Shown: one piece after another, positions 970 to 34,142 of the stretch | Numbering within the stretch: the stretch's first letter is position 1 | Layout: every line of letters starts with the position of its first letter | Source: Myxococcota bacterium | GTDB taxonomy: Bacteria; Myxococcota; XYA12-FULL-58-9; JALHOP01 | DNA length: 45,844 nucleotides | NCBI GenBank assembly: GCA_041288095.1 | Contig: JBGGMJ010000203.1 | Location: 1 to 45,844 of the forward strand | Direction: 5' to 3' | Program-made: the position numbers and the translations under genes | The notes under the pieces: model-generated | What the model was told of the DNA's origin: nothing | The model's input: the letters and a program-made list of their open reading frames with translations, nothing else | Database searches by the model: none

Positions 970-997
970 GTATCGGCAGGGGTTTTACGCTGTTGCG
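970..997 (-). promoter_or_regulatory. Motif A promoter (sigma28-like/ECF-like)
   Basis: Minus strand CGCAAC-N14-GCCGATAC ending 24 nt upstream of ATG 945. Confidence 0.6.
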
Positions 998-1001
998 GGC
1001 G

Positions 1002-1436
1002 TTAGCTCGTTTTAGCTGGGACCCAAAGGCCGCCCGCGGTTTGACGGAAGGCCTCGGTGTTTTCGAGCGCAGCCGCGGCGCCCGCCATGAGGTTCGACGA
1101 GGAAAGGTACTGGGTGATGGCGGCCAAGCCGGCCATACAGGCTCTCATCTCCGCGGAGATCGCGAGCGACTGGAGGGTCATCGGCCCCGTCGTGTCGAAG
1201 GCAGCCAACTGGGCGTGGGCGTTCGCCAACTTGAGGGCCGCGTCTTCGAGGGCTTTGTTGGCCTCGGGTGCCTGCGCGACCGGTGCGCGGGGCGGGATCA
1301 GGAGTCCTCCGGGCCCGCGTGTGTAGCCCGCGCCCAGTGCCTGAGTCGGCGTCCTGGTCTCGCCTCGCGCCTGGGTTTGGCTCAGCAGCTCCGCGGCTTC
1401 GAGGCGCACCTTCTTCGCATAGCCCACGATGTCCAT
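1002..1436 (-). CDS. Hypothetical alanine-rich helical protein (144 aa)
   Basis: C-terminal part of track ORF 1002..2378 (the rest is antisense to the acyltransferase). ATG 1436 gives MDIVGYAKKVRLEAAELL...TAGGLWVPAKTS; fills the gap and has a motif A promoter. Confidence 0.65.
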   Translation of the reverse strand: MDIVGYAKKVRLEAAELLSQTQARGETRTPTQALGAGYTRGPGGLLIPPRAPVAQAPEANKALEDAALKLANAHAQLAAFDTTGPMTLQSLAISAEMRACMAGLAAITQYLSSSNLMAGAAAALENTEAFRQTAGGLWVPAKTS

Positions 1437-1473
1437 TTTTGAATCCCCGGCGGCGGCGGCCCCGTGGAGATCT

Positions 1474-1501
1474 GTTTCGGCACGTCCTCGGCACAGTTGT
1501 G
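1474..1501 (-). promoter_or_regulatory. Motif A promoter
   Basis: Minus strand CACAAC-N14-GCCGAAAC upstream of ATG 1436. Confidence 0.6.
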
Positions 1502-1574
1502 TTTTTAAGGGCTTAGGCACTACACCGCGGACTGCCAGGAGATACTCACGGTCGTTCGCGCCCTCAGCTTCCTG

Positions 1575-2423
1575 ATGCGGATGGTGCCGCTCTCCTGGGC
1601 TCTGGCCTTCGCCCGCGCCATGGCCTGGGTCTGGTTCTGGCTCGTGCCCATCCGCAGACGGGTGGCGCTCGAGAACGTGCGACGGGCTCTCGGCGACGAA
1701 GCTCCGCGCCATGCCATCGTTCGCGGTTGCTTCGCCAATCTCACCATGTTCGCGGCCGAGGCGCTGCGCCTTCCCGAGCTCACCCGCGAGAAGGTCGAGG
1801 CGTTGGTCGAGGTTCAGGGGCAGGAGCACCTGGACGCCGCCCTCGCGTTGGGCCGCGGGGTCGTCGTGGTCTCGGCTCACATGGGCAATTTCGACCTCCT
1901 CGGCTGCGCCGCCGCGCTCCGGGGCGAGCTGACCAACGTCGTCTACAAGGCCATCCGCTGGAAGCAGGCCCACGACTTCTTCTTCGCGGCGCGAAAGCGG
2001 TGCGGCGTCACCGTCATTCCGCCCAAGGGCTCCGAACGGCAGATTCTGCGGGCTTTGCGGGCAAATCAGGCGGTGGCCTTCGTCATCGATCAGCACATGC
2101 CCAAACACAGGGGAGTGGCTTGCCGCTTCTTTGGGCGCTACGCTTCGACGACCCCCGCGCCGGCGCTCTTCGCGATGAAGACCGGAGCGGTGGTACTCCC
2201 GGCGTTGATTCGCCGTGTCGGTCATAGCGGACGTCACGTGAGCACGATCTATCCCCCCATCGCCATGGAAGAGCCTCACGCCGACCGCGCCGCGAACTTG
2301 CGGCACAACATGCAGCGGCTGAACGACTGGCTCGAGGCCGAGGTGCGCAAGACGCCCGAGCAGTGGCTGTGGCTGCACAAGCGCTGGAAGATCGAGCAGA
2401 ACCTCGCGGAGTGGGGGCTGTGA
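1575..2423 (+). CDS. Lipid A/lysophospholipid acyltransferase (LpxL/HtrB family)
   Basis: V.G.EHL..AL..GRGVVVVSAHMGNFD, DQH, FFG..A.T, and C-terminal PEQWLWLHKRWK signature. The frame is open about 20 codons upstream without a canonical start. Confidence 0.9.
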   Translation: MRMVPLSWALAFARAMAWVWFWLVPIRRRVALENVRRALGDEAPRHAIVRGCFANLTMFAAEALRLPELTREKVEALVEVQGQEHLDAALALGRGVVVVSAHMGNFDLLGCAAALRGELTNVVYKAIRWKQAHDFFFAARKRCGVTVIPPKGSERQILRALRANQAVAFVIDQHMPKHRGVACRFFGRYASTTPAPALFAMKTGAVVLPALIRRVGHSGRHVSTIYPPIAMEEPHADRAANLRHNMQRLNDWLEAEVRKTPEQWLWLHKRWKIEQNLAEWGL

Positions 2424-3313
2424 CCCGCAAGAAGCGCGAGCTTTATTTTTCGGGTGCTCCGGTCGAGCTCGACCCGAGCAAGCCGTTGCCCGGCGAGATC
2501 ACTCCCGAGCGGCGTCGCGCCTTCATTTTCGCCGGCTCGTTGGTGGGCTGCTTTTGCCTCGGCCTGGTGCTGGGTTTGGCTTTGGCGCCGCAAACACCGG
2601 CCGAGATCCTCGCCAAGAGCGAGGCCTTGGAAGAAGAGCTCACCGGTGCGCAAAAGCGGATTACCGATCTCGAGCGCACGTTGCAATACCGCGAGACCGA
2701 AAAGCCCATCAAAGCGGGCAAGCTCGCCCCCGAGATCCGCGCTCGCAACCAACAAGGCATCGATCGCATCGCCGTGATGATGAAGCGCTTCAAGGCGCAG
2801 GGTGCGTCGGAGCTCATGGAGTGGTTCGGCAAGCGCTGGAACGACCTCCTCGAAGCGCCCGAAAACGAGGACCGCACCGGCCGGAGAGCCGCGACCCTCG
2901 CCTTGCTCATCGGCGGCATGGCCGAGAACATGCACCCGCAAGACTTCGTCGAGTGGCAGGCGAGCTTCTTTCGCGGCAATTGGCTGGCCGAGCTGCACTA
3001 CGACATCGACGGCGACGGTCTACCCGGCCCTTCGTCGGCGCGGAATCCCAAGGACGGCTTCGCCAACGTTTCGGTTTGCCAGATCGCCATGGCTCTCAAT
3101 CAGTCGGTCACCGATACGCAGATCCTGGTGACGCCCGACATGCGCTGCGATCGTCCGCAATCGCGGATGTCACTGTTCCTCCAAGGGTCGACTTTCAAGA
3201 ACGCCATCGACGAATTCGTCGAAGCGGTCGAGCAAGAGGGCTTTCTCTTGGTCCAGCGCAAAGAGAAAAATGTTAGGCTGATCCTCATCGGGACGAAGCC
3301 CGGCCAGCGGTGA
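2420..3313 (+). CDS. Hypothetical single-pass membrane protein with coiled coil
   Basis: GTG 2420 overlaps the upstream TGA (GTGA). TM segment FIFAGSLVGCFCLGLVLGLALA, then heptad-like LEEELTGAQKRITDLERTLQ and a DIDGDG motif. Confidence 0.7.
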   Translation: MTRKKRELYFSGAPVELDPSKPLPGEITPERRRAFIFAGSLVGCFCLGLVLGLALAPQTPAEILAKSEALEEELTGAQKRITDLERTLQYRETEKPIKAGKLAPEIRARNQQGIDRIAVMMKRFKAQGASELMEWFGKRWNDLLEAPENEDRTGRRAATLALLIGGMAENMHPQDFVEWQASFFRGNWLAELHYDIDGDGLPGPSSARNPKDGFANVSVCQIAMALNQSVTDTQILVTPDMRCDRPQSRMSLFLQGSTFKNAIDEFVEAVEQEGFLLVQRKEKNVRLILIGTKPGQR

Positions 3314-3333
3314 CCCTGCGTCAGTTACTCGAG

Positions 3334-3362
3334 CACACCGCTTCGCCGCTTCAGCCCGAGAA
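3334..3362 (+). promoter_or_regulatory. Motif A promoter (weaker variant)
   Basis: CACACC-N15-CCCGAGAA ending 10 nt before ATG 3373. Confidence 0.35.
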
Positions 3363-3372
3363 AGTATCCTGG

Positions 3373-3927
3373 ATGACGACGAGCGTGCCTTCTGTTCCGT
3401 TGCGGCGCCCCGGCCTCAAAGGCTGGGTGGCGCACCAGCGCGACAAGTCGCTCGGCTGGGCCCGCGAGCAACAGGCGACGGGCACCGGCTACCGCAAGAA
3501 GGCTGCTGAAACCCTGCTCGAGCAGACCGAGCTCTTGGCACAGGGGCGTTCGCTCACCCGCGTCTACCGCACCGAGGAGCGGTTTATCCTCCAGGACAAC
3601 GGCCAGCGGGAGCTGCGCAACGTCGAAGTCGTCAAGTGGATCCCATCTGTGCTCTTTGCGGTCTTGGCGGGGACGTTCGCTGTCGGCTCGTACTTCACCG
3701 TGTTCGGCTACATCTTTGCCGCGGTCGGCGCCGCGCTCTTCGCCGGCATCGCCAAGGGCGCTCGCATCGCCAAACGCGACGACATTGCCTGCACCGCCAA
3801 GCGCATCTCGACGCTCTCGGGCATGGCGCTGATCCCGGTCGTCGGTAACGCGTTTCCGAGCCTGATCCTCGCGTCAGAGCTCAACGCGCTCGCGGCGCTC
3901 CGCAAGAAGATCGCGCCCGCCAGCTAG
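3373..3927 (+). CDS. Hypothetical membrane protein with long bilobed hydrophobic segment
   Basis: Track ORF 3310..3927; start is GTG 3310 (GTGA overlap) or ATG 3373 (MTTSVPSVPLRRPG). About 40-aa hydrophobic stretch WIPSVLFAVLAGTFAVGSYFTVFGYIFAAVGAALFAGIAKG. Stop shares CTAG 3924-3927 with the convergent gene. Confidence 0.65.
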   Translation: MTTSVPSVPLRRPGLKGWVAHQRDKSLGWAREQQATGTGYRKKAAETLLEQTELLAQGRSLTRVYRTEERFILQDNGQRELRNVEVVKWIPSVLFAVLAGTFAVGSYFTVFGYIFAAVGAALFAGIAKGARIAKRDDIACTAKRISTLSGMALIPVVGNAFPSLILASELNALAALRKKIAPAS

Positions 3928-4211: not shown

Positions 4212-4216
4212 GCCCT

Positions 4217-4246
4217 TACTTACACGCTGATGTGGGTCCCCGGTTG
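4217..4246 (-). promoter_or_regulatory. Motif B promoter (ECF-like), probably leaderless transcript
   Basis: Minus strand CAACC-N15-CGTGTAAGTA, 5 nt before ATG 4211; nearly identical to the site at 45118-45147. Confidence 0.6.
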
Positions 4247-4260
4247 GAGACCCGCGCCCC

Positions 4261-6339: not shown

Positions 6340-6366
6340 CGCAACTTTCGCCTGCGCCGGCGATAA
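6340..6366 (+). promoter_or_regulatory. Motif A promoter
   Basis: CGCAAC-N13-GGCGATAA upstream of the 6403 gene. Confidence 0.55.
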
Positions 6367-6402: not shown

Positions 6403-6966
6403 GTGGGCGTGAGTGACGTGGGTAGTGATGTGACGACCGTGCGGCTGCAGGGCTATGCCGCAAGCTCGGCCGAGCCAGGCCAAGAGAAACAAACCATCAA
6501 CATCAGACGCGATGCCGCCGGCCGCGTCTTGGACAGCAACGAAGAGCTCAAGCGCACGAGCCATGCGGCCGCGCGTCCGGACGCCACCAAGGTCGCGGCG
6601 CTCGCCAGGGATGACCAGGCGGTGCTCGAGCTGACCGCTGCTCTGTATGCTTGCCAGACGCGACGGGTGATGTCGGTCGCCGTTGGCGGCTTCTTCTTGC
6701 TCGCGCCATTCGCCACGGCGGCGTTCGCCGGCGCGGTATCGACCGGCGTCATCGCGCTTTGTGCCGTGGGTGTCGCCGGTAGCGCCGTCGTCTGGGGCGT
6801 CGAAAAGCTCCGCGATGGCAATTGGCACCGCCGCCTTGCCGCGGAACGCGTGCTGGCCGAGAAGCGAGCGTTCGACGTGCTCGCGAAGCCGACGGAAGCG
6901 ACACCGGCAGTGCCGGTGCGCAAGGTCGAGCTCGGTCTCATCGGCCGGCTGTTCGCGGCAATCTGA
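6403..6966 (+). CDS. Hypothetical protein with hydrophilic N-terminus and bilobed hydrophobic hairpin
   Basis: Fills the gap between opposite-strand operons; GTG start at 6403 or 6409. About 45-aa hydrophobic region VMSVAVGGFFLLAPFATAAFAGAVSTGVIALCAVGVAGSAVVWGV; no Sec signal. Confidence 0.65.
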   Translation: MGVSDVGSDVTTVRLQGYAASSAEPGQEKQTINIRRDAAGRVLDSNEELKRTSHAAARPDATKVAALARDDQAVLELTAALYACQTRRVMSVAVGGFFLLAPFATAAFAGAVSTGVIALCAVGVAGSAVVWGVEKLRDGNWHRRLAAERVLAEKRAFDVLAKPTEATPAVPVRKVELGLIGRLFAAI

Positions 6967-13878: not shown

Positions 13879-15569
13879 CGCGCCGCTCCCACCGCGAAGA
13901 AGTCGTCGTAACGAAACAGCCCGTAAGGCGTCGAGTACACGCCGCCGAAGCGCTTCGACACCATCGACAAGTTGTAGCGATTGAAGAGCAGGGTGATCGG
14001 CTCTTGCTCGTGCAGGAGCTCGCTGAAGCGCTGATAGATGGCGGCTCGCTTCTCGCGATCGAACTCACGGCGCGCGTCCTCGAGCATGGTGTCCGCTTCG
14101 GCGTTCTTGAAGCCGACCCAGTTCGAGCCTTCCTTGATGCTGCTCGAGTGCCAGATTGGATAGGGGTCGCCCTTGGGCTCGAGCTTCCACACCAGAGAGC
14201 AAGCTTCGAACTCTTGCCGGCGTAGACGCTCGGTGTAGACCGACCACTCGAGCTTCGCGGTGCTCACGGCGATCTTGGCGGCGCGCATCTCCGTGGTGAT
14301 GAGGGCGGCCAGCTGCTCGTAGAGCGGATTGTTGGTCGGATAGAGGAAGGTGAACGCGAGCTCGACGCCGCCTTTGTCGAGGGTGCCGTCGCCGTTGCTG
14401 TCACGCCACCCGGCCTCGGCGAGCAGCTTCGCAGCGCCCGCGGGATCGTAGGGCCACGGCGTGATGCGTGGATTGTGCTCCGGCGACCCTGGGTAGAACC
14501 ATGACGCCGCCGGCACATCGAGACCGAGCCGGAGGTTCTGCACGATGTCTTCGCGATCGATGAGCATGGTCAGCGCTCGCCGCACGCGCGCATCGCTGAA
14601 CATCGGCTTGGCTGCATTCCAGCCGATCCACTGGATGCCGTCGGGGACGTGCCGCAGTCGGTGGAACTTGTCCGCTAGAGCGGCGTCTTGGGTCAGCGCC
14701 TTCCACTGCTCGGGGGCGAGGCGCTCGACCACATCGAGCTCGCCATTGCGGATCATCTGCGCGCGCATCTGCGCGTCCGGCACGTAAACGAACGTGAGAG
14801 TGTCGAGGTGCCCCGGCGTACCGTAGTAGCTCTTGTTCTTCGCGAGCGTGAGGTGATCGCCGGTCTTCCACTCGACGAACTTGTAGCGCCCCGTGCCGAT
14901 GGGCGCGCGGTTCGCCGGATGCGCGTTGAAGTCGCCGCTCGCGAAGACGTGCTTCGGATAGATGTAGATGTCGGTGATGGCTTCGAGCGCGAACCAGTAG
15001 GGCTGCGAGGTGGTGAAGACGACGGTGTGCGGATCTTCGGCGACGACGGAGGTAATGGGCTCGACGTAGCCGCGCATACCCGTCGCCGCCACCTTGGGAT
15101 CGCGCAGCTTCTCGAAGGTGAACACGACGTCGTCGGCGCTGAAGGGCTTGCCGTCGTGCCACTTCACGCCGCGCCGCAGGCGGAAGCGGAAGGTGCGACG
15201 GTCCTCGGAGATCTCCCACGACTCGGCGAGACGAGGCTCGGGACGCCAGTTGCGTGGGTCGGCCTGGGCCAACGATTCGTAGATGTAATAGGCGAGGTCG
15301 CGGCCGCGTGCGTCCACGGGATCGAGCTGCGGGTTCAAGTGCGGCGGCTCGGAAGCCATGCCAATGCGCAGGGTGCCGCCTTCGACGCGCGTGCCCTGTT
15401 CGCTGATCGCCGGCAGGGTGTCGCCCCGGTAGACGCTGGGAGCCACCGGCCGCGGCGGCGGCTCGCTTTTTTCGGACGCCTTTTCGCTAGAGCAGCCGGT
15501 GCAGACCGCTAAAGCGAACGCCAACCATGATGTCTTACCCGGTGAGCCCGTGAACGATCTCCGATTCAA
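13875..15569 (-). CDS. Peptide ABC transporter substrate-binding lipoprotein (SBP family 5)
   Basis: Lipobox-like VCTGC, GGTLRI, LAESWEIS.D...F.F.LR.GVKWHDG.PFSADDVVFT, PIGTG.YKF, FSDARVRRAL, GWRDSNGDG. TTG start is uncertain and overlaps the upstream gene. Confidence 0.93.
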   Translation of the reverse strand: MNRRSFTGSPGKTSWLAFALAVCTGCSSEKASEKSEPPPRPVAPSVYRGDTLPAISEQGTRVEGGTLRIGMASEPPHLNPQLDPVDARGRDLAYYIYESLAQADPRNWRPEPRLAESWEISEDRRTFRFRLRRGVKWHDGKPFSADDVVFTFEKLRDPKVAATGMRGYVEPITSVVAEDPHTVVFTTSQPYWFALEAITDIYIYPKHVFASGDFNAHPANRAPIGTGRYKFVEWKTGDHLTLAKNKSYYGTPGHLDTLTFVYVPDAQMRAQMIRNGELDVVERLAPEQWKALTQDAALADKFHRLRHVPDGIQWIGWNAAKPMFSDARVRRALTMLIDREDIVQNLRLGLDVPAASWFYPGSPEHNPRITPWPYDPAGAAKLLAEAGWRDSNGDGTLDKGGVELAFTFLYPTNNPLYEQLAALITTEMRAAKIAVSTAKLEWSVYTERLRRQEFEACSLVWKLEPKGDPYPIWHSSSIKEGSNWVGFKNAEADTMLEDARREFDREKRAAIYQRFSELLHEQEPITLLFNRYNLSMVSKRFGGVYSTPYGLFRYDDFFAVGAAR

Positions 15570-17010
15570 TCGCCTGCGGGATGATGGCGCCGCTTTCGGG
15601 GTCGATGCAAACGTACATGCGTCGCATGACGCCCGACATCGCCGAGTGGGCGTTGTAATCGGTGATCCAGAAACACATCAGCTGATCGTTGCGCTGCTCG
15701 TCGTAGGCCATTTTCGGCACTTCCTCGTGCCAGTCGCGCTTCTGCAGCGCCTCCTCGTCTTGTTGATCGTCGTCGCGGCCCTGCTGTTGTTGTTGCTGCT
15801 GCTGGCGCTCGCGCTCACGTTCGCGCTCGTACACACGCGAGTGCGCCTCTTGCTGGCGCCGGTGCGCGGCGAGCTCGGTCCAGAAGAGGTTCTCGAGGTA
15901 CCAGGCTTGCACCAGCTCCTGCGCGTCACCACGGCCGAGCTGCCGTCCGATCTGTTCGCGGTCCGCGAGCATGATGTCACTCGCCCGGCGTGCGGCGCTG
16001 CGCGCCCAGTGCATGAGATCGCGTTTGACGATGGGCCGGCTGCCCTTCGAGGTCTTGCCGAAGCCACCGAGTGATTCGCGCAGCTTCTTGTAGAGCGCCG
16101 TGAGCTCTTCGTGCGAGAGCGCGCGCATCGCCGCCATGGTGCCGAGCATGGCGACGCCGGCGTCCTTCAAGCCCAGCAGGAACTCCGGGCGCATGCCGAG
16201 CTCGCCGTTGCGGCCGGGGCCGATCTTCAAGAGCTCGGCGCGCATGAGCAAGGTGAGGAGCTCGCCGCGGCCCATTCCCAAGGCCTCCGCCAAAGCGGCT
16301 CGATCGCCCGGCATCGCGCCGGTACGAACGAGCTGCAGCGGATCACTGATGCCGAGGCGCCCGAAGACGTCGGCAAGCTCGTCGCCGAAGGTCGCCTTCA
16401 TCAGCGCCAGGCGCTGGGTCGGAGATAGATCGCTCGGTGCGCGCTCGACGAGATGCGGCAGGCGCAGGCTCGCGCCATCGAGAGCCGACAAGCGCTGCCC
16501 GAGGATCTCGATGAGGGTCGTGCCTTCGCCCTTCGGCGAGGCGACGCCATGGCGATCACGCACCAGCGCCTGCGGGATGTGCGTGACCTTCTGGACGAAC
16601 TGGGTCCACTGCAGCGCTTGATGCGGCGTCGACTGATCTGTCGCTGCCTGGCGGGCGGCTTCGGGCGTCGGCGCTTGGCCGAAGCGGTTCTGCGGGTTCG
16701 GATCGTTGGCGTTGGCGAAGCGCTGCATCAGCTTCGCCAGGACCGCGTCGTTTGCCGAGCCGGTCTGGAGCTGTTGCGCTAGCTGCTCGGGGAGCTGGCC
16801 CCGAAGCTGCTCGACCAGCATGCGCCCCATGGCCTCTTTGGCCGGCTCCGACAGCTCGGCAGGGTTGAGCCTCGCCAGCTCGACAGCGGCTGTCCGGTCT
16901 TTGCGGATTTGCGTGAGCAGCGCATAGGCCGCATCGTCCGACCGCTGACGGGCCCTGTTGCCCTCATCAACGTGGGACAAATCCACTTTATTTTCGCGGA
17001 TTTCGACCAT
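15535..17010 (-). CDS. Hypothetical protein with DUF4332-like helix-hairpin-helix region, poly-Q linker and small Cys-containing C-terminal domain
   Basis: ATG 17010 MVEIRENKVDLS (GTG 17043 also in frame). LGISDPLQL...GDRAALAEALG...LL.LL.RAELL.I...LKDAGV..L resembles DUF4332; RERERERQQQQQQQG; tail CFWI...RMYVCIDP.SG. Confidence 0.7.
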   Translation of the reverse strand: MVEIRENKVDLSHVDEGNRARQRSDDAAYALLTQIRKDRTAAVELARLNPAELSEPAKEAMGRMLVEQLRGQLPEQLAQQLQTGSANDAVLAKLMQRFANANDPNPQNRFGQAPTPEAARQAATDQSTPHQALQWTQFVQKVTHIPQALVRDRHGVASPKGEGTTLIEILGQRLSALDGASLRLPHLVERAPSDLSPTQRLALMKATFGDELADVFGRLGISDPLQLVRTGAMPGDRAALAEALGMGRGELLTLLMRAELLKIGPGRNGELGMRPEFLLGLKDAGVAMLGTMAAMRALSHEELTALYKKLRESLGGFGKTSKGSRPIVKRDLMHWARSAARRASDIMLADREQIGRQLGRGDAQELVQAWYLENLFWTELAAHRRQQEAHSRVYERERERERQQQQQQQQGRDDDQQDEEALQKRDWHEEVPKMAYDEQRNDQLMCFWITDYNAHSAMSGVMRRMYVCIDPESGAIIPQAIESEIVHGLTG

Positions 17011-20443: not shown

Positions 20444-20471
20444 CGCACCGTCGCGCTCATTCTGCCGATGT
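20444..20471 (+). promoter_or_regulatory. Motif A promoter
   Basis: CGCACC-N14-GCCGATGT upstream of ATG 20500. Confidence 0.5.
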
Positions 20472-20499: not shown

Positions 20500-21153
20500 A
20501 TGCCAATTCAATTCCCTCCGACTGTCATCGAAACCGGCGCCATCAAGCAGCCGCGCGAGGTCATGCATGCCGTGCGCGCCATCGACGGCTCGCGCTATGT
20601 CGTCGCCATGAGTGGCGGAGCTCCGGCGCATCGCGCCACCCTCGTTGCCGGCATGTTCGAGCAGATGCGGGCCAATCGTGACTGGAGCTTCATGCCGATC
20701 GACGACGTCTATCAGCGTTACGTCGGCCGCGCCGCTCCAGCGGATCGTTCCCTTGCCGGCGTCCTCGGCATGCTCTTCGACATTGGCGGTGGCACCTACA
20801 GGATGACCACCCCGGACGGCCGCACGCGTGACCTCAAGCCCGTAAGTATCCGCCAAGGCTACACCGATCGATCCGCTTTCGTGGACGCTCTTGCGAAGAG
20901 CCCCGCGAAGCTCATGACCACCCTGCAGGCGCTATCGCTCACCAACCCAGAGACCACGGTGTTCGCCATCGACGCCGACGCGAGTCCGGGTCGAGGCGTG
21001 CGCCGTGGTGCCGGCGACCCACTTTGGGACCTCTTCAACATGCTCGTGCACAACCCGACCGACGTCCGCTTCATCGTCACCGGCAAGGAAGCAAACAAGC
21101 TCCTGCCCCCCAGCGCGCCGACGGGCCGGATCCAGGCGATCGAGCTGCGCTAG
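20500..21153 (+). CDS. Hypothetical protein, possibly a degenerate P-loop NTPase fold
   Basis: Best-fitting ORF in the gap after tolB; YVVAMSGGAPAHRATLV, TVFAIDAD and VRFIVTG occur in Walker A / Walker B / sensor order but without GKT. Confidence 0.65.
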   Translation: MPIQFPPTVIETGAIKQPREVMHAVRAIDGSRYVVAMSGGAPAHRATLVAGMFEQMRANRDWSFMPIDDVYQRYVGRAAPADRSLAGVLGMLFDIGGGTYRMTTPDGRTRDLKPVSIRQGYTDRSAFVDALAKSPAKLMTTLQALSLTNPETTVFAIDADASPGRGVRRGAGDPLWDLFNMLVHNPTDVRFIVTGKEANKLLPPSAPTGRIQAIELR

Positions 21154-21181: not shown

Positions 21182-21209
21182 CACAACGTGCCGCGCCGCG
21201 TCGCGAGAA
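21182..21209 (+). promoter_or_regulatory. Motif A promoter
   Basis: CACAAC-N14-CGCGAGAA upstream of ATG 21243. Confidence 0.5.
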
Positions 21210-21242: not shown

Positions 21243-21581
21243 ATGCGCACCACTCGCGTGGACGCCGCCGTCCAAGCTCGCCCCGCATCCGCCGGCACCC
21301 GGATGATCGTCGTCGAGCAGAACTTTCCGAACCCCGCGCAGCCCCACACCCATCGTGCCCTCGACCTCGGCACCGGCTGGGCTTCGACCCCGGTCGCCGT
21401 GCTCTTCGCCGGCAACCGCTACGAGGTGAAGCTGATGAATGACGGCTGGCGCAACCCGAAGAAGCCGTTCGCGGTGAAGTTCCCCATCTTGAACGACGGC
21501 CTGCACGGCGCGACCGTTGTCCTTCAGAACGGACAGCAGGTGCCGGTGCTCTTGTCGGTGCACACGACGTTCTTCCCCTAG
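21243..21581 (+). CDS. Hypothetical beta-rich protein (112 aa)
   Basis: GGAG RBS 8 nt before ATG; stop shares CTAG 21578-21581 with the convergent kinase gene. Confidence 0.65.
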   Translation: MRTTRVDAAVQARPASAGTRMIVVEQNFPNPAQPHTHRALDLGTGWASTPVAVLFAGNRYEVKLMNDGWRNPKKPFAVKFPILNDGLHGATVVLQNGQQVPVLLSVHTTFFP

Positions 21582-24010
21582 CGCTCTTCGATGATGTTGT
21601 TCTGATCGGGCAGCGGTGCGTTGAGCGCGTAGACGTACGACGCGGTCATGATTAGCAGGCCCATGAACGCGGCAACGACGAGCGTGATCATATCGCTGCG
21701 CGAGAAGAAGCGACCGACCTCTTCGTACTCGTCGTCGTCGTCGGCCTCCTCGTCGGGCCCGTCGTCGAGCATCGCGCCGGGCATGGGGGTCGCGACGGTT
21801 CGCGGGGCGTTGTCGGCGTCGTCGGGGAAGGGGCCTGAGCGCGCGAAGGCCTCGTCGTCGAGGAGCTCGATGTCCTCGACCTTGTCGGCGGCGGTGTCGC
21901 TCTCGTCGAGCTGCGAAGGCCCGCGACCCTTCTTCTTCTTGCTCTTGGCGTGAGCCATCGCGACTTGCGTGACCGCCTTCTCGGGCGGGGTGGCAACGAC
22001 GGTCGAAACGTGAAGCGGCTGCACCGTGGTGGCGACGTTCATGCCGTCAGGTGGAGCTGGATTCACGACTGCGAGCAGCTCGGCGATTTGCGCGTTGTCG
22101 GCGTTCTTGGGGCGCTTGAAGTCCTGCTTCGTAATCTCGACCCCGAAGCCCGACGGCTGCGTTCGGCGTACGAGATCCGCGATGCTGTCCTCGTAGACCT
22201 TGGTCTTGGCCTCGAAGATGATCGAGGGACTCGCGGCTGTCGGCGTCTTGAGCTGGAAGAGCGCGTCGCCGGGGCCTTGGTCGCCGAAGAGCGGCTCGAC
22301 GACGACTGTTGGACCTTCGTTCAAGGCTGCCGGCGGCACGGTAAACGAGGAGGTCGCGCCCCCTTCGCCGGCCCAGGGATTCGCGAGCTGCACGGGCGCG
22401 TCGGCGATCGCTTCGCGTGCGACGGGCTGGTCGGCGCCGGTTGGCTCGTCGTCGAGCTTCGGCATGACCTCGTCGACGGTGAAGCTGAAGTCACCCATCG
22501 TCACGAGCTCGGGCTCCGCGGCGGGAGCGACGGACTCGGTGCCGGGCGTTGGCTCGAAAGGTATCAATTGCAGCGTATCGGTCGAGGCTATGAACTGCGC
22601 GGCCCCGGGCGACTCCGTGACCGGTTCGTCGATCGCCTGAACCGCATCGAACAAGCCGCTGTCGGAGATCTGCTCCTCGATGATGACCGGCCCGTCGGCA
22701 CGCGTGCTGGTATCGGTGACTTCGAGGTGCACGCCGGTATCGGTGATCTCACGGTGCACACCGCTGTCGGAGACGTCGTGATGGACGCCGGTGTCCGGGA
22801 TGTCGCCGTTGATGCCGGTATCGGTGCGCTCGACATGATCATCGAGCGGCGCACCCTCGGCGTCGCTCACGCCGGTGTCGTCGTCGTCATCGATGCTGGA
22901 GAGCCGCGGATCATCGGCGGTGGTGCGTTCGTCTTGTATGTCGCGCGTCCGCGAGCCTTCGAGGCCGCCGCCGCTGGGGCTGTCACCCATGGCCAGCGGC
23001 TTGCTCCCCGAGCCGGTCGCCGGCAGGTGCGTGAGGCGGCGGTATTGCTCGACGCGCACCTTCTCGCGCTCGTAGTCCTCGAAGAAGAGCTCACGCATGA
23101 TGCGCGCGAGCTCACCCTTGTCGATCACCTGTCCGTCGTCACGGATGAAGGCGCGCAGGGCCTCCGCCATCTCAGCCGCGGTCGCGTAGCGCTTGTCGGG
23201 CTCACGTTGCATGGCGCGCTCGATGATCTTTCCGAGCACCCGTGGCATGCCGGCGTTCACCAGGTCGGGTGGCGAGAAGCTCGCGCGCGCGACTTTCCCG
23301 AGCGTGGCCGCGTCGCTGCCGCCGCGGAATGGGGCCATCCCGGTGGTCATCTCGTAGAGAATGACGCCCAACGAGAAGACATCGGAGCGCCTATCGGCCG
23401 GGTTGCTGATCGCTTGTTCGGGAGACAGGTACCCGAATCGACCCTTGATCGAGCCGATGCGGCCTTCGATCCCGCGGCTCTTGGCGTCGCGCGCGCTGAA
23501 GTCGATGACCTTGGGCACGCCGTCGTAGGAGATCAGGAGCTTTTGGGGGCTCAAGTCACGGTGAACGACCGATTTGCCGAGCTCGTCGGGGACCTCGAGG
23601 CCGTGAGCGTAGTCGAGCGCGTCCGCGATGGCGGCGGCAATGTACGCGCTGGCCACATAGGACAAGGGAGCGCCGGTCTTGCGCGCGCGTTGCTGGATGG
23701 TCTTGAGGTCCTTGCCGTGGATGAACTCCATGACCAGGAAGTGCTGCTTGTTGTTGACCCCGGAGTCGATCGTCTCGACGATGTTGGGATGGCGCAGAAT
23801 GCTGGCAATCCGCGACTCGTCCTGGAAGGTCTTGATGAGCTCGGGATTGCCGGCGAATTGCGTCAGCAAACGCTTCACCGCGAGCAGACGTCCACCTACG
23901 CTGTCCCCGAGCCGCTTACCCAGGAACACCTCTGCCGTCCCACCGGTCCCCAGCCGGCCGAGTAGGTAGTAGTCGCCGTAGGCGATCCCTTCACTCACGC
24001 AGCGAAACAT
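21578..24010 (-). CDS. Hanks-type Ser/Thr kinase-like membrane protein, probable pseudokinase
   Basis: LGTGGTAEV, AVKRL, HPNIV, MEFIHGKDL, HRDLSPQK, IDFS, GYLSPEQ, DRRSDVFSLG; long acidic disordered linker; C-terminal TM. Confidence 0.9.
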   Translation of the reverse strand: MFRCVSEGIAYGDYYLLGRLGTGGTAEVFLGKRLGDSVGGRLLAVKRLLTQFAGNPELIKTFQDESRIASILRHPNIVETIDSGVNNKQHFLVMEFIHGKDLKTIQQRARKTGAPLSYVASAYIAAAIADALDYAHGLEVPDELGKSVVHRDLSPQKLLISYDGVPKVIDFSARDAKSRGIEGRIGSIKGRFGYLSPEQAISNPADRRSDVFSLGVILYEMTTGMAPFRGGSDAATLGKVARASFSPPDLVNAGMPRVLGKIIERAMQREPDKRYATAAEMAEALRAFIRDDGQVIDKGELARIMRELFFEDYEREKVRVEQYRRLTHLPATGSGSKPLAMGDSPSGGGLEGSRTRDIQDERTTADDPRLSSIDDDDDTGVSDAEGAPLDDHVERTDTGINGDIPDTGVHHDVSDSGVHREITDTGVHLEVTDTSTRADGPVIIEEQISDSGLFDAVQAIDEPVTESPGAAQFIASTDTLQLIPFEPTPGTESVAPAAEPELVTMGDFSFTVDEVMPKLDDEPTGADQPVAREAIADAPVQLANPWAGEGGATSSFTVPPAALNEGPTVVVEPLFGDQGPGDALFQLKTPTAASPSIIFEAKTKVYEDSIADLVRRTQPSGFGVEITKQDFKRPKNADNAQIAELLAVVNPAPPDGMNVATTVQPLHVSTVVATPPEKAVTQVAMAHAKSKKKKGRGPSQLDESDTAADKVEDIELLDDEAFARSGPFPDDADNAPRTVATPMPGAMLDDGPDEEADDDDEYEEVGRFFSRSDMITLVVAAFMGLLIMTASYVYALNAPLPDQNNIIEER
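22709..22826. repeat. Degenerate 27-bp coding tandem repeat (about 4.4 copies; D[TS]G[VI] nonapeptide)
   Basis: Units begin at 22709, 22736, 22763, 22790, 22817; protein TDTGINGDI-PDTGVHHDV-SDSGVHREI-TDTGVHLEV-TDTS. Confidence 0.75.
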
Positions 24011-26059: not shown

Positions 26060-26191
26060 TCAGCGCTTGCCGAATGTCCGCTCGAGCAGACGCCCTAGAC
26101 CGTCTGCAAGACGTCGCAGATTGTGGGCGCTGAACACCATCGCGAGGATGAACAGGGTGAGCATCAGCTCTGGGAAATACGGCACCTGCAT
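26060..26191 (-). CDS. Very short TatA/TatE-like membrane peptide (43 aa)
   Basis: ATG overlaps the upstream stop (TGATG). MQVPYFPELMLTLFILAMVFSAHNLRRLADGLGRLLERTFGKR follows the TatA pattern EL....hydrophobic.FG..KL..LA.GLG. Confidence 0.55.
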   Translation of the reverse strand: MQVPYFPELMLTLFILAMVFSAHNLRRLADGLGRLLERTFGKR

Positions 26192-27099
26192 CAGATGTTC
26201 AGACCGACCTTCAGCGTGTGGCTGACGTGATTGCCGGCGGCGCCGATCCCCGACGGTATGAAGCCGATGTCGAGGAAGTAGCCCGCGAAGCCGAAGCCAT
26301 ACACGGCATGACAACCCAGGAACAAACGCGTGATGTGGTTGTCGCCGAAGCCCAACGTCGGAAAGCGATAGAGCGAGCCGCCGGGCGCGAAGGTTTGATC
26401 GGCGGGGTCGACGACCTCGGCGGGAGTCGCGTCGAGGACGCCGCTGCTGGTGCGAACGAGCATGCGCCCGATCCCGAGTGAAGGCGTGAGCCGGAGCGCG
26501 GCTCTCCAGATGATGGTGTAGGAGGCCAGCAGATCGAATTCGAGCGTCGTCTGCGTCAGCTCACTGGCGCCGACGAGGTGGCCAACTCCGGCACGCAGGG
26601 CAACGTCGGGAACGTAACGCGGTAGATACGCCTCGAAGAGCCCCACTTTGACGTCGAGGCCGAGCGCCACCATCGAGCTCGAGCCGAGGTACGCCATCGA
26701 CAAGCCCAGGTCCGTCGACAAAGGCAGGCCTTTGCGGACTTGCAACGTCGGCGACCAGAAACCGCCAGGCGAGCCACCACCGTTGACCGCGCTCTCGAAG
26801 ACCTGGGCGGATGGTGCGCCCTGCCAGTATTCGGCGCTGCCACTTATACCCGTATAGTTGAGCGCGAAGGCGAGCTCGAAGCCGGCGGCGCCCAGGCTGT
26901 CGGCGCCGGCGAGGACCCGGGGTCCAACCACGAACGCGAGCTCGGTCGCCAAGGCCCGATAGCGGGCCACCGAGGGGTCGGAGAGGTCGTTGCTCTGCGG
27001 TCGCCCAAGGCCGATCAGCGAAAAGTCGCGGGGACCGGCGTAGGCCACACCGGTGCCCAAAAGGACGACGAGGAGGGCGGCGAGACGGGCGAACGCCAT
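26191..27099 (-). CDS. Exported hypothetical protein, probable outer-membrane beta-barrel
   Basis: Signal peptide MAFARLAALLVVLLGTGVAYA; alternating beta patterns LQVRKGLPLS.DLG, PDVALR.G; ends LKVGLNI. ATG 27147 (ATGA overlap) is an alternative start. Confidence 0.7.
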   Translation of the reverse strand: MAFARLAALLVVLLGTGVAYAGPRDFSLIGLGRPQSNDLSDPSVARYRALATELAFVVGPRVLAGADSLGAAGFELAFALNYTGISGSAEYWQGAPSAQVFESAVNGGGSPGGFWSPTLQVRKGLPLSTDLGLSMAYLGSSSMVALGLDVKVGLFEAYLPRYVPDVALRAGVGHLVGASELTQTTLEFDLLASYTIIWRAALRLTPSLGIGRMLVRTSSGVLDATPAEVVDPADQTFAPGGSLYRFPTLGFGDNHITRLFLGCHAVYGFGFAGYFLDIGFIPSGIGAAGNHVSHTLKVGLNI

Positions 27100-27143
27100 G
27101 GGTGCTCGATTGTCGGCGCGTTTGCCCATTCTGTTTCGGCGGC

Positions 27144-28271
27144 TCATGTCGCGCCTTCGAGGAAAAAGGGGTGGAGAGCTGAGAGGCTAGCGAGGTCATG
27201 CACGTCGCCGGCAAGCTCGGGCAAGAGAATCGTGCGGACCTGGCCCAGGCGCTCGGCGAGCTGCTGGATGGCATCGCGGTCGGCGGCTGCGAGTGCGGCT
27301 TCCTCGCGGAGGGCGCCCACGGCCTGATCCGCGGCCCCTGGAGTGAGCGTCTTGAGGGCCGTGCGAACCGCTTCCAGGGTCTTGGGGCTTTCGACGTCGG
27401 GCGGGACGTTGCGGACGCGATTGACCACCAGGGCACGGACCTTGAGGCCCTCGGCCGCGAGCTCCTCACGGAAGCGGAACATGGCGTCGTGCTGGGCGCG
27501 CTGGGTGCTCGATACCAGGTTGAAGGCAACCTCGTCGGAAGCGAGGAGGTCGCGCACGCGTCGCGAGCGCTCGCGGAAGCCCTCGTACATGCCCTGGAAG
27601 CCGAGGACGAACTCGGCGAGCTCGCGCAGCGTCTCCGCTCCGGCGAGCTTGCCGACGCTCTTGCTGATGAACGAGCTGCCAACGTCGAGGATCTTGAGCG
27701 AGAAGCGGCCCGCCGCCGCGTAGGGCTTCACCAACCACTGCACTGTGTCCTGCTCGAGGAAATCGATGATGCGGCTCGGCGCCTCGAGGAAGTCGACGGC
27801 GTTGCCGGAGGGTGGGGTGTCGAGGACGATGAGGTCGTATTTGCCGCTGGCGTAGACTTCGTGAAGCTTCTCTACCGCGGCGTATTCGTGCGAGCCGACG
27901 AGCACGGTCGAGAAATGCTGATAGATGCGGTTGCCGAGGATGGCGCGCTTCTTCTCGTCGTTCGGGGCGAAGCGCTCCACCAGCTCGTCGAAGGTGCGCT
28001 TCACGTCGGGCATCATGGCCCAGAGGGGCGCCTGGAGCTTCACGCCATAGGGCGCGAGCTGATCTTGCTCGATTTCATGCTCGACGTTGCCGAACGCGGG
28101 GAGGCCCAGGGCGTTGGCGAGACGGCGGGCTGGGTCGATGGTCATGACGAGAGTGCGACGCCCGCTTGCCGCGGCGGCGACCGCCATCGCGGCCGACACG
28201 GTGGTCTTGCCGACGCCGCCGGTGCCGACGTTGACGACGACCTTGCGACCCTCCCAGACCGGCTTGCTCAT
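27144..28271 (-). CDS. ArsA/Get3-family ATPase
   Basis: GTGGVGKTT, TIDPARRLANALG, EYAAVEKL, YDLIVLDTPPS, FLEAP, VVNRV. Confidence 0.9.
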   Translation of the reverse strand: MSKPVWEGRKVVVNVGTGGVGKTTVSAAMAVAAAASGRRTLVMTIDPARRLANALGLPAFGNVEHEIEQDQLAPYGVKLQAPLWAMMPDVKRTFDELVERFAPNDEKKRAILGNRIYQHFSTVLVGSHEYAAVEKLHEVYASGKYDLIVLDTPPSGNAVDFLEAPSRIIDFLEQDTVQWLVKPYAAAGRFSLKILDVGSSFISKSVGKLAGAETLRELAEFVLGFQGMYEGFRERSRRVRDLLASDEVAFNLVSSTQRAQHDAMFRFREELAAEGLKVRALVVNRVRNVPPDVESPKTLEAVRTALKTLTPGAADQAVGALREEAALAAADRDAIQQLAERLGQVRTILLPELAGDVHDLASLSALHPFFLEGAT

Positions 28272-29268: not shown

Positions 29269-29274
29269 CGCGCC

Positions 29275-29469: not shown

Positions 29470-29532
29470 CGTCGTTCGATCGTCGGTCGATTGTTGAGCC
29501 GATCTTAGGTCCCTGCGCGACGACCCAGGGAC

Positions 29533-32459: not shown

Positions 32460-32481
32460 TAGCGGCGAGAGCCTGGACTCA

Positions 32482-33180
32482 TCATCCGGGCAGGCGCCGA
32501 TAGACCCCGACGACCAAGCCGATGATTTGCACCTGCTTGAAGTCTTTCTTGTCGACGTAAATGGGTTTCATGCTGGCGTTGGCCGGCTGCAGGCGGATGC
32601 GATCGCCCTCGGGGTAGTAGCGCTTCACGGTCGCTTCGTTCTCGATGATGACGACGACGATCTCGCCGGGGTCGGCGTGGGGGCGCTTGCGCACGAAGAT
32701 GTAGTCGCCGTCGTAGATGCCGTCTTCGATCATCGACTCGCCGACGACCTTGAGCGCGAAGAGCTTCTTGCCATCGCCGACCAGCATCGAATCGACGACC
32801 ACCGAGCCCTCGGCGTTCTCTTCGGCGAGGATCGGCTCGCCCGCGGCGACGCGACCCAAGATGGGGATCTCGACGCTGCGGCCACTGCCGCCCGATGGGA
32901 ACAGCGCGCGCACCACGTTGCTACCGCGCCCATCGCCGCGCTTGTCTTCGGCGGCCTCGTCGTTCACCAGCATGAGGGTGCGCGACTTCATGTCTTGCTG
33001 CTGCAGGTAGCCTTTGCGCTTGAGGGCCTTGAGATGGTCGGCGACGCCGTTGGTCGAGCGGATGCCGAGGTGCTCGCCGATTTCACGGATTGTCGGGGGA
33101 TACCCCCAGGCGCGGATGCGGTCTTGGATGAACTCGTAGACTTCGCGCTGACGATCGGTGAGCTCGGGACGGTCGTTCAT
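32482..33180 (-). CDS. lexA: SOS repressor LexA
   Basis: LTDRQREVYEFI, GYPPTIREIG, HLKAL.RKGY, GRVAAGEP (Ala-Gly cleavage site), GESM (Ser), EATVKR (Lys). Confidence 0.97.
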   Translation of the reverse strand: MNDRPELTDRQREVYEFIQDRIRAWGYPPTIREIGEHLGIRSTNGVADHLKALKRKGYLQQQDMKSRTLMLVNDEAAEDKRGDGRGSNVVRALFPSGGSGRSVEIPILGRVAAGEPILAEENAEGSVVVDSMLVGDGKKLFALKVVGESMIEDGIYDGDYIFVRKRPHADPGEIVVVIIENEATVKRYYPEGDRIRLQPANASMKPIYVDKKDFKQVQIIGLVVGVYRRLPG

Positions 33181-33187
33181 ACCGGCG

Positions 33188-33216
33188 ACGTTACTGAACG
33201 CTTGAACACGTGTCAA
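33188..33216 (-). promoter_or_regulatory. Sigma70 promoter of lexA (leaderless) overlapped by candidate LexA half-sites
   Basis: Minus strand TTGACA-N17-TAACGT then 7 nt to ATG 33180; YTGAAC/GTTCAG half-sites at 33194, 33202 and 33219. Confidence 0.75.
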
Positions 33217-33342
33217 ATGTTCAGCAACGGAAAAGACCGCTAACGCGTACGCGCCTTTGGCACCGGCGAGAAGGTTCCTGGTGCTTTCGTTTTCCTGGCT
33301 TCACGGAGGGATCTCGCGCTACGAAGCGAGGACCGACCTCCC

Positions 33343-34050
33343 ATGTATCTTGCCAAGAATCCAAAGCTCATCGAGGCCTTCAAAAAGGGCGATCGCAAGG
33401 CGATGGATGAAATCTACCGGCACTATGCGCCCGGTGTGACCTCGTTCTTGCGCAAGGGCTTCAGCTTCCGCAGCGCTACCGGCAACTTCTACTTCAAGGG
33501 CATTCAAGACCCGAGCGAGCTGAAGTCGGCGGTGCAAGAGGTCTTCCGCCGCGCCTTCGAGGCCAAGGCACGCAACTCGTACAACGGCGCCTACTCGTTC
33601 ACCAACTGGGTGCTCGCCATCTCGCGCAACATGGTGATCAACCAGTTCCGCAACCGCGAGATCGCCTTCAGCGAGTACATCTCGGGCTCCGACGAACGCA
33701 GTCACCTCACCGTCATGGACGACGAGGTCACCGAGGAGTTCACCGGTCTCCTCTACGGGCAGCCCTCTCCATCACAAGACGCCAAGATGGAGACCACCGA
33801 GCTCAAGACGCTCATCGACAAGTTCATGGGCGAGCTCGACGAGCACGACCGCAGCCTCTTGGTGCTGCGCTTCGCCGAGGGTCGCGGCCAGGAAGAGACC
33901 GCGGAAGCGATCGGCAGCACGCGCATGAAGGTCCGCACGGCGGAGTCGCGCCTGCGCGGCCGCCTGCGCGCTTACCTGCGCCACTCCGGCTACATCGACA
34001 ATCTACCTCTCGGTAAGAAGCCCGACGGCGAAGAGGACGAAGAGGGCTAA
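33343..34050 (+). CDS. RNA polymerase sigma-70 factor, ECF-like
   Basis: FKKGDRKAMDEIY, VQEVF.RAF, F.NWVLAISRN..IN (region 2); L...DR.LL.LRFAEG..QEETA..IG.TR..VR (region 4). Confidence 0.88.
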   Translation: MYLAKNPKLIEAFKKGDRKAMDEIYRHYAPGVTSFLRKGFSFRSATGNFYFKGIQDPSELKSAVQEVFRRAFEAKARNSYNGAYSFTNWVLAISRNMVINQFRNREIAFSEYISGSDERSHLTVMDDEVTEEFTGLLYGQPSPSQDAKMETTELKTLIDKFMGELDEHDRSLLVLRFAEGRGQEETAEAIGSTRMKVRTAESRLRGRLRAYLRHSGYIDNLPLGKKPDGEEDEEG

Positions 34051-34114
34051 GCCCGATCGCCTCATTTTCCGCCGCGACATCACCACCCTGCGCCGGCCCG
34101 TCGGGTCCGAATTC

Positions 34115-34142
34115 CACAACCCGGCCTCGCGCGTCCCGATAA
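34115..34142 (+). promoter_or_regulatory. Motif A promoter
   Basis: CACAAC-N14-CCCGATAA upstream of ATG 34219. Confidence 0.6.

Follow-up and report, generated by a model that had tools for sequence, protein, structure and literature searches.

The contig JBGGMJ010000203.1 of a Myxococcota draft genome (assembly GCA_041288095.1) is 45,844 nt long, and this whole stretch, hereafter the window, carries seven copies of a two-block motif placed just upstream of genes. A first-pass annotation, made from the letters of the window, had taken these sites for the promoters of a dispersed regulon of orphan genes driven by one alternative sigma factor. The seven sites very probably belong to one promoter class of the sigma-28 family, which recurs across the genome and also heads rows of type III secretion system (T3SS) genes. 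We propose that RNA polymerase with a non-flagellar sigma-28 paralogue would read CGCAAC-N14/15-GCCGATAA; that this sigma factor, called the C92-type below, would drive the T3SS apparatus operons together with about 300 mostly stand-alone genes, 7 in 10 of them without a known domain; and that many of the products would leave through the T3SS, the sigma factor coupling machine and cargo much as HrpL does. Taken as a whole, this statement has in our estimate a probability of about 0.5, on the evidence of sequence comparison.

Direct reading and a regular-expression scan both recover the seven strings on the strands and at the positions annotated, each 5' of a co-oriented open reading frame and 10-76 nt from its start codon, counted from the end of the -10 octamer. 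Their scores on the weight matrix described below span 14.4-20.8. The genome of the window is called G000 here and its relatives are numbered from G001; G001, G002 and G003 are of the same genus. The sites and the genes that follow them are:

970..997, minus strand: promoter site 1, CGCAAC-N14-GCCGATAC, score 20.7; -35 and -10 blocks kept in G001, G002 and G003
1..945, minus strand: target gene 1, ATG at 945, about 24 nt from site 1; runs past the window edge
1474..1501, minus strand: promoter site 2, CACAAC-N14-GCCGAAAC, score 18.9; kept in G001-G003
1012..1439, minus strand: target gene 2, a 142-aa orphan, ATG at 1439, about 34 nt from site 2
3334..3362, plus strand: promoter site 3, CACACC-N15-CCCGAGAA, score 14.4, the lowest of the seven
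3373..3927, plus strand: target gene 3, an orphan starting MTTSVPSVP, about 10 nt from site 3; ATG kept in the alignment
6340..6366, plus strand: promoter site 4, CGCAAC-N13-GGCGATAA, score 15.8; kept in G001
6403..6966, plus strand: target gene 4, an orphan, GTG at 6403, about 36 nt from site 4
20444..20471, plus strand: promoter site 5, CGCACC-N14-GCCGATGT, score 16.7; kept in G002, where the -35 reads GCAAC
20500..21153, plus strand: target gene 5, a 217-aa orphan, ATG at 20500, about 28 nt from site 5
21182..21209, plus strand: promoter site 6, CACAAC-N14-CGCGAGAA, score 16.8
21243..21581, plus strand: target gene 6, a 112-aa orphan, ATG at 21243, about 33 nt from site 6
34115..34142, plus strand: promoter site 7, CACAAC-N14-CCCGATAA, score 20.8
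34219..34920, plus strand: target gene 7, an orphan, ATG at 34219, about 76 nt from site 7; N-terminal part Pro-rich (PRP-repeat)

In comparison with the three same-genus genomes, sites 1-5 have retained both the -35 and the -10 block, whereas their spacers and flanks have drifted; at site 3 the alignment gives a -35 of CAAC in G002 and G001, with the -10 retained. The genome-wide counts come from a draft of 5.85 Mb in 212 contigs (66% G+C, 90% complete; the window is contig C203), on which an in-house codon-usage caller, crude also in its start codons, placed 4861 genes covering 92% of the DNA; intergenic DNA makes up 8%. The pattern AAC-N13-15-[CG]CCGATA occurs 148 times: 108 matches lie between genes and point the right way, 8 lie between genes in the wrong orientation, 27 are within coding sequence and 5 at contig ends. 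Equal frequency in coding DNA or on the wrong strand had been named in advance as the outcome that would speak against a promoter, and these counts go the other way. The loosest pattern of the first-pass annotation matches 306 times (117 correct, 13 wrong, 173 coding). The count depends on the spacer, CAAC-N14/15-CCGATA being found 100 times as against 7 for spacers of 10-11 nt and 8 for spacers of 18-19 nt, and on the direction of the pattern, CAAC-N15/16-CCGATA being found 138 times as against 5 for its reverse.

An iterated weight matrix of two blocks, trained on upstream regions, has the consensus cGCAAC-N14/15-GCCGATAA, with the -10 positions occupied by G (59%), C (56%), C (99%), G (100%), A (100%), T (63%), A (70%) and A (56%). 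The spacer is N14 at 201 sites and N15 at 84, and the consensus is common to both. At a score of at least 16 there are 353 correctly oriented, 22 wrongly oriented and 478 coding matches, and at a score of at least 18 there are 267, 14 and 96; these counts are partly circular because the matrix was trained on upstream regions, whereas the regular-expression counts are free of this circularity. The density of the motif in intergenic DNA is 9 to 33 times that in coding DNA, and the -10 element lies at a median of 49 nt from the start codon. Block conservation, orientation and spacing therefore indicate that the motif is real and behaves as a promoter.

The assignment to the sigma-28 family is suggested by the -10 element and the spacer. 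In the fliC promoter of Pseudomonas aeruginosa the -35 element is (-36)TCTAAAG(-30) and the -10 element (-15)GCCGATAA(-8), and GCCGATAA is named as the consensus -10 (excerpt of PMC12784957). The octamer and the 14-nt spacer of our motif equal those of sigma-28 promoters, and the extended -10 GC is present, in agreement with the sigma-28-like -10 noticed by the first-pass annotation. The -35 element is CGCAAC, unlike the TCTAAAG of sigma-28. The pattern TAAA-N14-16-GCCGATAA has 0 occurrences in the genome, and none of 40 relatives shows an excess of TAAA-type patterns, a result that probably reflects the small number of late flagellar promoters. The G000 assembly, at 90% completeness, yielded no flagellin gene. 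Its sisters G001-G003 and G005 encode flagellin as well as a second FHIPEP, near which lies a third sigma gene; in G001 and G005 the flagellin genes are preceded by CTAAAG-N14-GGCGATGA and CTAAAG-N14-GTCGATGC, that is, by promoters of the form CTAAAG-N14-G(G/T)CGATG and not of the CGCAAC type. Two sigma-28-type promoter codes therefore coexist in the lineage. The flagellar cluster itself (G001:C2:510500-530400 and G005:C48, in genomes of the same genus and order that are labelled Myxococcota), with two flagellin genes, the second FHIPEP gene and a FliA-like sigma gene nearby, is wholly missing from the G000 assembly, through either loss or binning.

Which sigma factor reads the motif? Sigma-70 region 2 has 36 matches in the genome, most of them of the size of extracytoplasmic function (ECF) sigma factors. 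The search for FliA/WhiG-like sigma genes, proposed in the first-pass annotation, yields two. Their best family is TIGR02479 (FliA_WhiG; 166.1 and 163.7 bits), their top PDB matches are solved FliA structures, and both have regions 2, 3 and 4 (group 3). These two genes, and the sigma gene of the window, are:

G000:C92:35188-36072: C92-type sigma, the last gene of a four-gene row that is headed by a motif scoring 19.2
G000:C127:21744-22571: C127-type sigma, followed by an 80-aa FlgM-family gene (pair 21744-22853)
33343..34050 of the window, plus strand: ECF sigma gene adjoining site 7, with no motif upstream; probably not the motif reader

The C92 row consists of a 185-aa gene, a TPR gene, a 159-aa gene and the sigma gene; its TPR gene has weak SycD/LcrH, SctY and CdsG matches and is T3SS-chaperone-like, and the sigma gene is 12 kb from sctJ-sctN. 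On C127, the FlgM-family gene matches PF04316 with 31.3 bits (cut-off 25). The C127 sigma/FlgM pair, which sits in an assembly devoid of flagellar genes, is kept in G001-G003 and G005.

Two residues of region 4.2 in the P. aeruginosa protein, S224 and Q228, touch bases of the -35 element (excerpt of PMC12784957). Alignment of each paralogue to the solved FliA chains gives the corresponding helix:

P. aeruginosa and Escherichia coli FliA: -35 helix SESRVSQLH
C127-type: -35 helix TDSRVCQLH; S and Q retained
Flagellar-type, beside flhA in G001: -35 helix TESRACQL; S..Q retained
C92-type: -35 helix SKSWTSRLH; Q replaced by R and R by W

Of 39 orthologue loci (48-99% identity), 38 have the C92-type helix, SKSW[T/A]SR, without variation; the 39th is cut short. 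Altered -35 element and altered helix together would make the C92-type paralogue the natural reader of CGCAAC, and on balance we consider it the probable one. The distribution of the two points the same way: an excess of the motif over the reversed-pattern control of at least 10 is found in 20 of the 22 relatives that have a C92-type orthologue and in 6 of the 18 that have none, a comparison among 40 relatives to which no significance test was applied because they are not independent. One of the six exceptions, G023, has a distant sigma factor with the helix SRSWVTRTH. Of 18 relatives examined, 8 have a motif scoring at least 14 upstream of the orthologous sigma gene; in G001, G002, G009, G014 and G017 this motif is visibly homologous. 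Autoregulation of the C92-type sigma is possible given the motif at the head of its own row.

Directly upstream of the C92-type sigma gene lies the gene for a 159-aa protein of no known family (G000:C92:36185-36664, minus strand). At least 8 of 31 orthologous loci have it in this position, at 32-96% identity. Its start (M-x-R-I-G-G-G-G) and its helical C-terminal half are conserved; the low-complexity stretch that it also contains is variable. This protein could be a partner or an anti-sigma factor of the C92-type sigma.

The T3SS genes of the assembly comprise one FHIPEP gene (sctV, on C31), one sctU (on C41), and one sctJ and one sctN (both on C92). The genes sctJ and sctN belong to one same-strand row, and 111 nt ahead of its first gene is a motif scoring 18.3; another scoring 17.8 lies 381 nt upstream of sctV, and a third, scoring 21.8, comes after sctU, a 170-aa gene and a SycD/LcrH-like chaperone gene. 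The first-pass annotation had supposed that the regulon supplies substrates to the secretion system. As far as the machine is concerned the link stands, the motif heading the sctJ-sctN and sigma rows and lying upstream of sctV; as far as the cargo is concerned, the substrate status of the products is a prediction from their sequences. The link to the secretion system is thus better supported than that annotation could know.

With targets defined as genes whose start codon lies within 300 nt of a site scoring at least 16, the set comprises 326 genes. They amount to 6.7% of all genes called, or to 14% if only the 2324 genes whose upstream gap reaches 60 nt are counted. A very large regulon of one alternative-sigma promoter class, as extrapolated from the seven sites, is supported by this count. 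Stand-alone genes make up 71% of the targets and 60% of the controls. Within the window, none of the seven target products exceeds a Pfam cut-off (34219-34920 has a sub-threshold low-complexity match, 19.7 vs 100 bits), while 24 of the 37 other window genes have a match at E<=0.001 (Fisher p=0.002), in keeping with their description as orphans. The enrichment before genes of no known domain extends to the genome: in a Pfam scan at E<=1e-5 of 247 targets, 141 from the 40 motif-richest regions and 106 from the remainder, 75 had a match (40 + 35). The corresponding figure for motif-free genes, drawn at random from among the first-in-unit genes of these regions, is 86 of 129 (p=2e-11).

What the annotated targets encode is distinctive. 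Peptidases number 18 among the 75 annotated targets and 4 among the 86 annotated controls; the families are M14, S8 (three), S9 (two), S41 (two), C11, M20 (two), M4 (two), M1, C26, trypsin, M24 and M74. Protease inhibitors (serpins and a chagasin-type inhibitor), degraders of lipids and polymers (lipases, PLD and a polyhydroxybutyrate depolymerase), Endonuclease_NS, lytic transglycosylases, GH3, GGT, asparaginase, adenosine deaminase and amine oxidases are also represented, as are PilZ, FHA, kinases, AAA ATPases and an operon with a T2SSE ATPase. The first-pass annotation had seen no housekeeping operons behind the motif, and genome-wide such targets are few, with UvrC, PanB and enolase as the exceptions. 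The annotated controls are typical core genes (aconitase, EF-G, GuaA, IMPDH, RF, FtsK). No paralogue within the genome was found for 215 of the 326 targets, the largest paralogue family has 4 members, and no N-terminal domain shared among the targets was found. Nor are the targets detectably more variable than other genes across the same-genus genomes: mean presence was 1.33 of 3 genomes for 15 motif genes and 1.5 for 30 others (p=0.6), all taken from two motif-rich regions and parts of the window, with 40 candidates scored per genome and two window targets scoring below 16 classed as non-motif.

Three of the targets elsewhere in the genome are of separate interest. On C190 (minus strand) the motif drives the gene of a 4157-aa protein with dynein-type AAA_5 and VWA domains, and on C89 that of a 162-aa protein with a Fic/DOC domain. 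At G000:C136:5904-8260 a motif scoring 18.6 heads a row made of a 132-aa gene and the gene of a 612-aa T2SSE (PilB/GspE-like) ATPase; this is the only one of six T2SSE-ATPase loci examined to have the motif.

Among the window targets, gene 1 has a weak ExeM/NucH nuclease-like match (41 bits, under the cut-off) and no signal peptide, and gene 2 was overlooked by the gene caller used here. In searches among 5.8 billion proteins the product of gene 4 matched only itself (0 relatives), that of gene 5 had only 2 relatives (79% and 62% identity) and that of gene 6 had 1. Gene 6 has no DNA match in G001-G003, and in G003 tolB and the kinase gene stand just 40 bp apart at the place it occupies here. 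Hydrophobic segments are paired in the C-terminal half of the gene 3 product, and the gene 4 product has an internal, two-lobed hydrophobic stretch. Both proteins thus share an adjacent hydrophobic pair in the C-terminal half and no N-terminal signal, a layout that resembles T3SS-delivered membrane proteins such as the chlamydial Inc proteins. Genome-wide, two-lobed internal hydrophobic domains are not enriched (1.8% of motif proteins vs 1.3% of controls).

The case for export of the products is made by missing signal peptides together with a shifted N-terminal composition. A hydrophobic N-terminus is present in 25 of the 326 motif proteins (7.7%) and in 547 of 1998 controls (27.4%; p=4e-17). 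Once the proteins with hydrophobic N-termini are removed from both sets, residues 2-26 of the targets show a surplus of P, Q, S and A over the controls and a deficit of aromatics, C, K and E; the fraction of S+T+P+Q+N over these residues is 0.308 in targets and 0.250 in controls, and S, T and I are over-represented at positions 3-6. Signal peptides are lacking in an M4 peptidase with FTP propeptide, S8 and M14 peptidases, GGT, chagasin, serpins and a beta-lactamase-fold protein. Normally extracellular families carry low-complexity N-terminal extensions, such that the first recognised domain starts 40 to about 165 residues in. That most of the target products are exported by the T3SS is a plausible reading of these features, although we would rate it somewhat short of an even chance.

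The window itself holds a row of genes for T3SS translocators and a chaperone:

34945..45069, minus strand: T3SS translocon and chaperone row, with a SycD/LcrH chaperone gene (42681-43820), SseC-like genes (41081-42556 and 39323-40828) and an SseD-like gene (38242-39285)
42619..42649, minus strand: weak candidate site, score 12.5, under the working threshold, between the chaperone gene and the SseC-like gene next to it

The chaperone reaches 130.6 bits with LcrH_SycD (cut-off 104.8); the SseC match is of 42 bits, and the SseD match, of 24 bits, is weak. At 379 aa the chaperone is about twice the usual length, with two TPR modules, and the LcrH_SycD model matches two stretches of it. The two SseC-family neighbours, each of about 500 aa, one with a clear and one with a weak match, look like tandem translocator paralogues.

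Several observations weigh against the proposal that a C92-type sigma couples the T3SS to its cargo. The translocon row just described has no strong motif, no site scoring at least 13 being found before it. Ser at 10% or more of the first 50 residues, I, L, V or P at position 3 or 4 and no D or E in the first 12 residues are the three rules of export known from work on Pseudomonas syringae, and this combination, found in 14 of 326 motif proteins and 81 of 1993 controls, does not tell the two sets apart. Signal peptides are found in 7 of 67 motif proteins and 13 of their 67 best non-motif paralogues (discordant pairs 10 vs 4, p=0.18). A few targets have lipoprotein-like signals (cytochrome c, DHOR, PSD/PSCyt), and UvrC, PanB and enolase look cytoplasmic. 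Both FliA/WhiG-like sigmas score below the curated NCBIfam cut-off of TIGR02479, 189.6 bits. In G005 (motif excess 74 vs 4) and G022 (36 vs 8) no C92-type sigma was found, in the former by protein query and by profile; G016 likewise has the motif and no such sigma. The argument from autoregulation is not exclusive to the C92-type, since a motif is found at some point upstream of three further sigma genes, of ECF type or other. Finally, 141 of the 247 motif genes scanned were drawn from the motif-richest regions, and all genome-wide gene calls and starts rest on the crude in-house caller.

The products may instead have little to do with the T3SS. The same promoter class could serve a global life-style programme (attack, starvation or development) in which most products are not T3SS substrates, acting inside the cell or leaving it by vesicles or lysis, with the T3SS as one of many co-regulated modules. 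Bdellovibrio FliA offers a precedent, TTAAG-N16-CCGATA being reported at 92 of 140 attack-phase promoters (excerpt of PMC3627812), and the breadth of the regulon, which extends to the T2SSE-ATPase operon, PilZ, FHA, kinases, AAA ATPases, enolase, UvrC and PanB, fits such a programme, as does the negative outcome of the three-rule export test. Some 300 T3SS substrates would, moreover, exceed the largest repertoires severalfold; to our knowledge these lie several times below that number. This explanation is weakened by normally extracellular enzymes without signal peptides (M4 with propeptide, S8, M14, GGT, chagasin, lytic transglycosylases), because these are hard to explain if cytoplasmic, and by the presence of the motif on T3SS operons and beside T3SS chaperone genes; we hold it possible but doubtful. 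Chance matches, an artefact of GC-rich composition or a binding site of a repressor or activator are, by comparison, negligible as explanations. The degenerate pattern is indeed common in coding DNA (173 of 306 matches of the loosest pattern, and 478 coding matches at scores of at least 16), but the orientation bias (353:22), the 9- to 33-fold intergenic density, the specific spacer (100 vs 7-8), the reversed-pattern control (5 vs 138), the regular position before start codons and the retention of both blocks while the spacer varies contradict any such origin.

Other sigma factors may also be considered as readers of the motif. The C127-type paralogue could read it, alone or with the C92-type; export of its FlgM through the T3SS would then free the sigma factor and time the expression of the targets. 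A FlgM domain is encoded directly downstream (PF04316, 31.3 bits), the four relatives in which the motif excess is strongest (G001-G003 and G005) are the only ones with close C127-type orthologues (>=59% identity), and in G005 the C127-type is present while the C92-type was not found. However, the C127 helix, TDSRVCQLH, is canonical, as in E. coli and P. aeruginosa FliA, and hence predicts a TAAAG-type -35 and not CGCAAC; there is no motif upstream of the C127 sigma gene, and the motif is in excess also in relatives without a C127-type (G011, G013, G015, G019, G025 and G034). We regard this reading as unlikely. An ECF (group 4) sigma factor, for instance that of window gene 33343-34050 or one with a motif upstream, is a far more improbable candidate. 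Typical of ECF sigmas are promoters with an AAC in the -35 element and, at a distance of about 16-17 nt, a CGT in the -10, and an autoregulated sigma/anti-sigma operon. The -35 of our motif ends in AAC with 16 nt to a CG, most of the 36 Sigma70_r2 matches are of ECF size, and two such genes, on C53 and C126, have a motif-bearing gene just upstream. The first-pass annotation had accordingly mentioned ECF geometry, which both the complete sigma-28 octamer of the -10 and its sigma-28 spacing disfavour here: the eight bases of GCCGATAA have an invariant CGA followed by T/A-A, not the CGT-type ECF element. The ECF gene of the window lacks an upstream motif, and it is the sigma-28 subfamily with the re-specified -35 helix that tracks the motif across genomes.

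Coupling by a C92-type sigma has its closest kin in the HrpL hrp-box and Bdellovibrio FliA regulons; the promoter class is real and its family clear, while the identity of the sigma factor and the fate of the products are inferences from comparison. As in the HrpL regulon of P. syringae and Erwinia, one promoter type would serve T3SS operons and dispersed, mostly stand-alone genes, and might point to candidate effectors. HrpL is an ECF sigma whose hrp box reads GGAACC-N15/16-CCACNNA; here the sigma factor would belong to the sigma-28 group (regions 2, 3 and 4) with a -10 of GCCGATAA, the regulon is severalfold larger and secretion of the products is only predicted. In the published case, this one alternative sigma acts through a single promoter type before T3SS operons and before dispersed effector and non-effector genes (excerpt of PMC3879358). 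The attack-phase promoters of Bdellovibrio bacteriovorus govern flagella, proteases, surface proteins and many uncharacterised genes (excerpt of PMC3627812). This, too, is a large, mainly non-flagellar programme with proteases and uncharacterised proteins behind a sigma-28-type promoter, in a bacterial predator, but it is run by the flagellar FliA itself with a near-canonical -35, whereas here a separate paralogue with a changed -35 helix appears to act through the CGCAAC element, and T3SS operons are part of the regulon.

The class 3 FliA-FlgM systems of E. coli, Salmonella and P. aeruginosa share with the present one the -10 GCCGATAA, the 14-nt spacer, a sigma-28/FlgM pair and a type III export machine in the regulon; they differ in that here the -35 is CGCAAC, the targets are non-flagellar and the 90%-complete assembly lacks genes for flagellin and flagellar export. 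WhiG is held by the anti-sigma factor RsiG, armed with cyclic di-GMP, and controls few sporulation genes. In Actinomycetota it represents the use of a sigma-28 member in a non-flagellar programme with a GCCGATAA-type -10 (excerpts of PMC8325347 and 10.64898/2026.01.14.699351), a likeness to our case that ends with the size and content of the regulon. Within the same phylum, Myxococcus xanthus employs a needleless T3SS* with the Kil Tad pilus in contact-dependent killing of prey (excerpt of PMC12075869), so that a T3SS-related machine is there tied to predation; here SseC/SseD-like translocators and SycD/LcrH chaperones are encoded in addition. At the level of abstracts and listings, the literature found describes no dedicated sigma factor or promoter class for the M. 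xanthus T3SS*, and at the same level no paper was found on sigma-28-type control of an injectisome or effectors in Myxococcota.

If the C92-type sigma indeed reads the motif, it would be a natural case of a sigma paralogue shifting its promoter specificity by two residues of a single helix, with a single promoter element changed; the old code persists in the same genus with the flagellar copy. The motif would then single out about 7% of the genes of an uncultured bacterium, mostly devoid of any other annotation handle, as one co-regulated set tied to a T3SS, and would hint at very large arsenals of injected or exported proteins in the myxobacteria of soil and water, with prey bacteria or eukaryotic hosts as possible targets. 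In its sharpest form the idea is that, in an uncultured and flagellated branch of the Myxococcota, a re-specified sigma-28 paralogue (SESRVSQLH to SKSWTSRLH; CGCAAC for TAAAG) drives an injectisome and about 300 unrelated, fast-turning-over substrates without Sec signals, among them orphans, proteases, lipases, nucleases, wall hydrolases and a Fic protein. This form is tentative, and we think it may well be too strong. Were it true, the arsenal would be comparable in size to the set of Dot/Icm effectors of Legionella, and the motif would be a ready tag for T3SS cargo in metagenome-assembled genomes. Because promoter and candidate sigma factor are both defined, the claim is directly testable.

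Two further matches in the window lie within or across genes. On the minus strand at 15711-15740, a motif scoring 18.9 falls in the 3' part of gene 15535-17010, about 140 nt 5' of the longest start of a solute-binding-protein gene in an Opp/Dpp-type ATP-binding cassette transporter operon; an internal promoter and a chance match are both possible readings. Also on the minus strand, a motif scoring 18.3 at 27110-27140 spans the junction between an ArsA-like ATPase gene (27144-28271) and gene 26191-27129, whose function is unknown.

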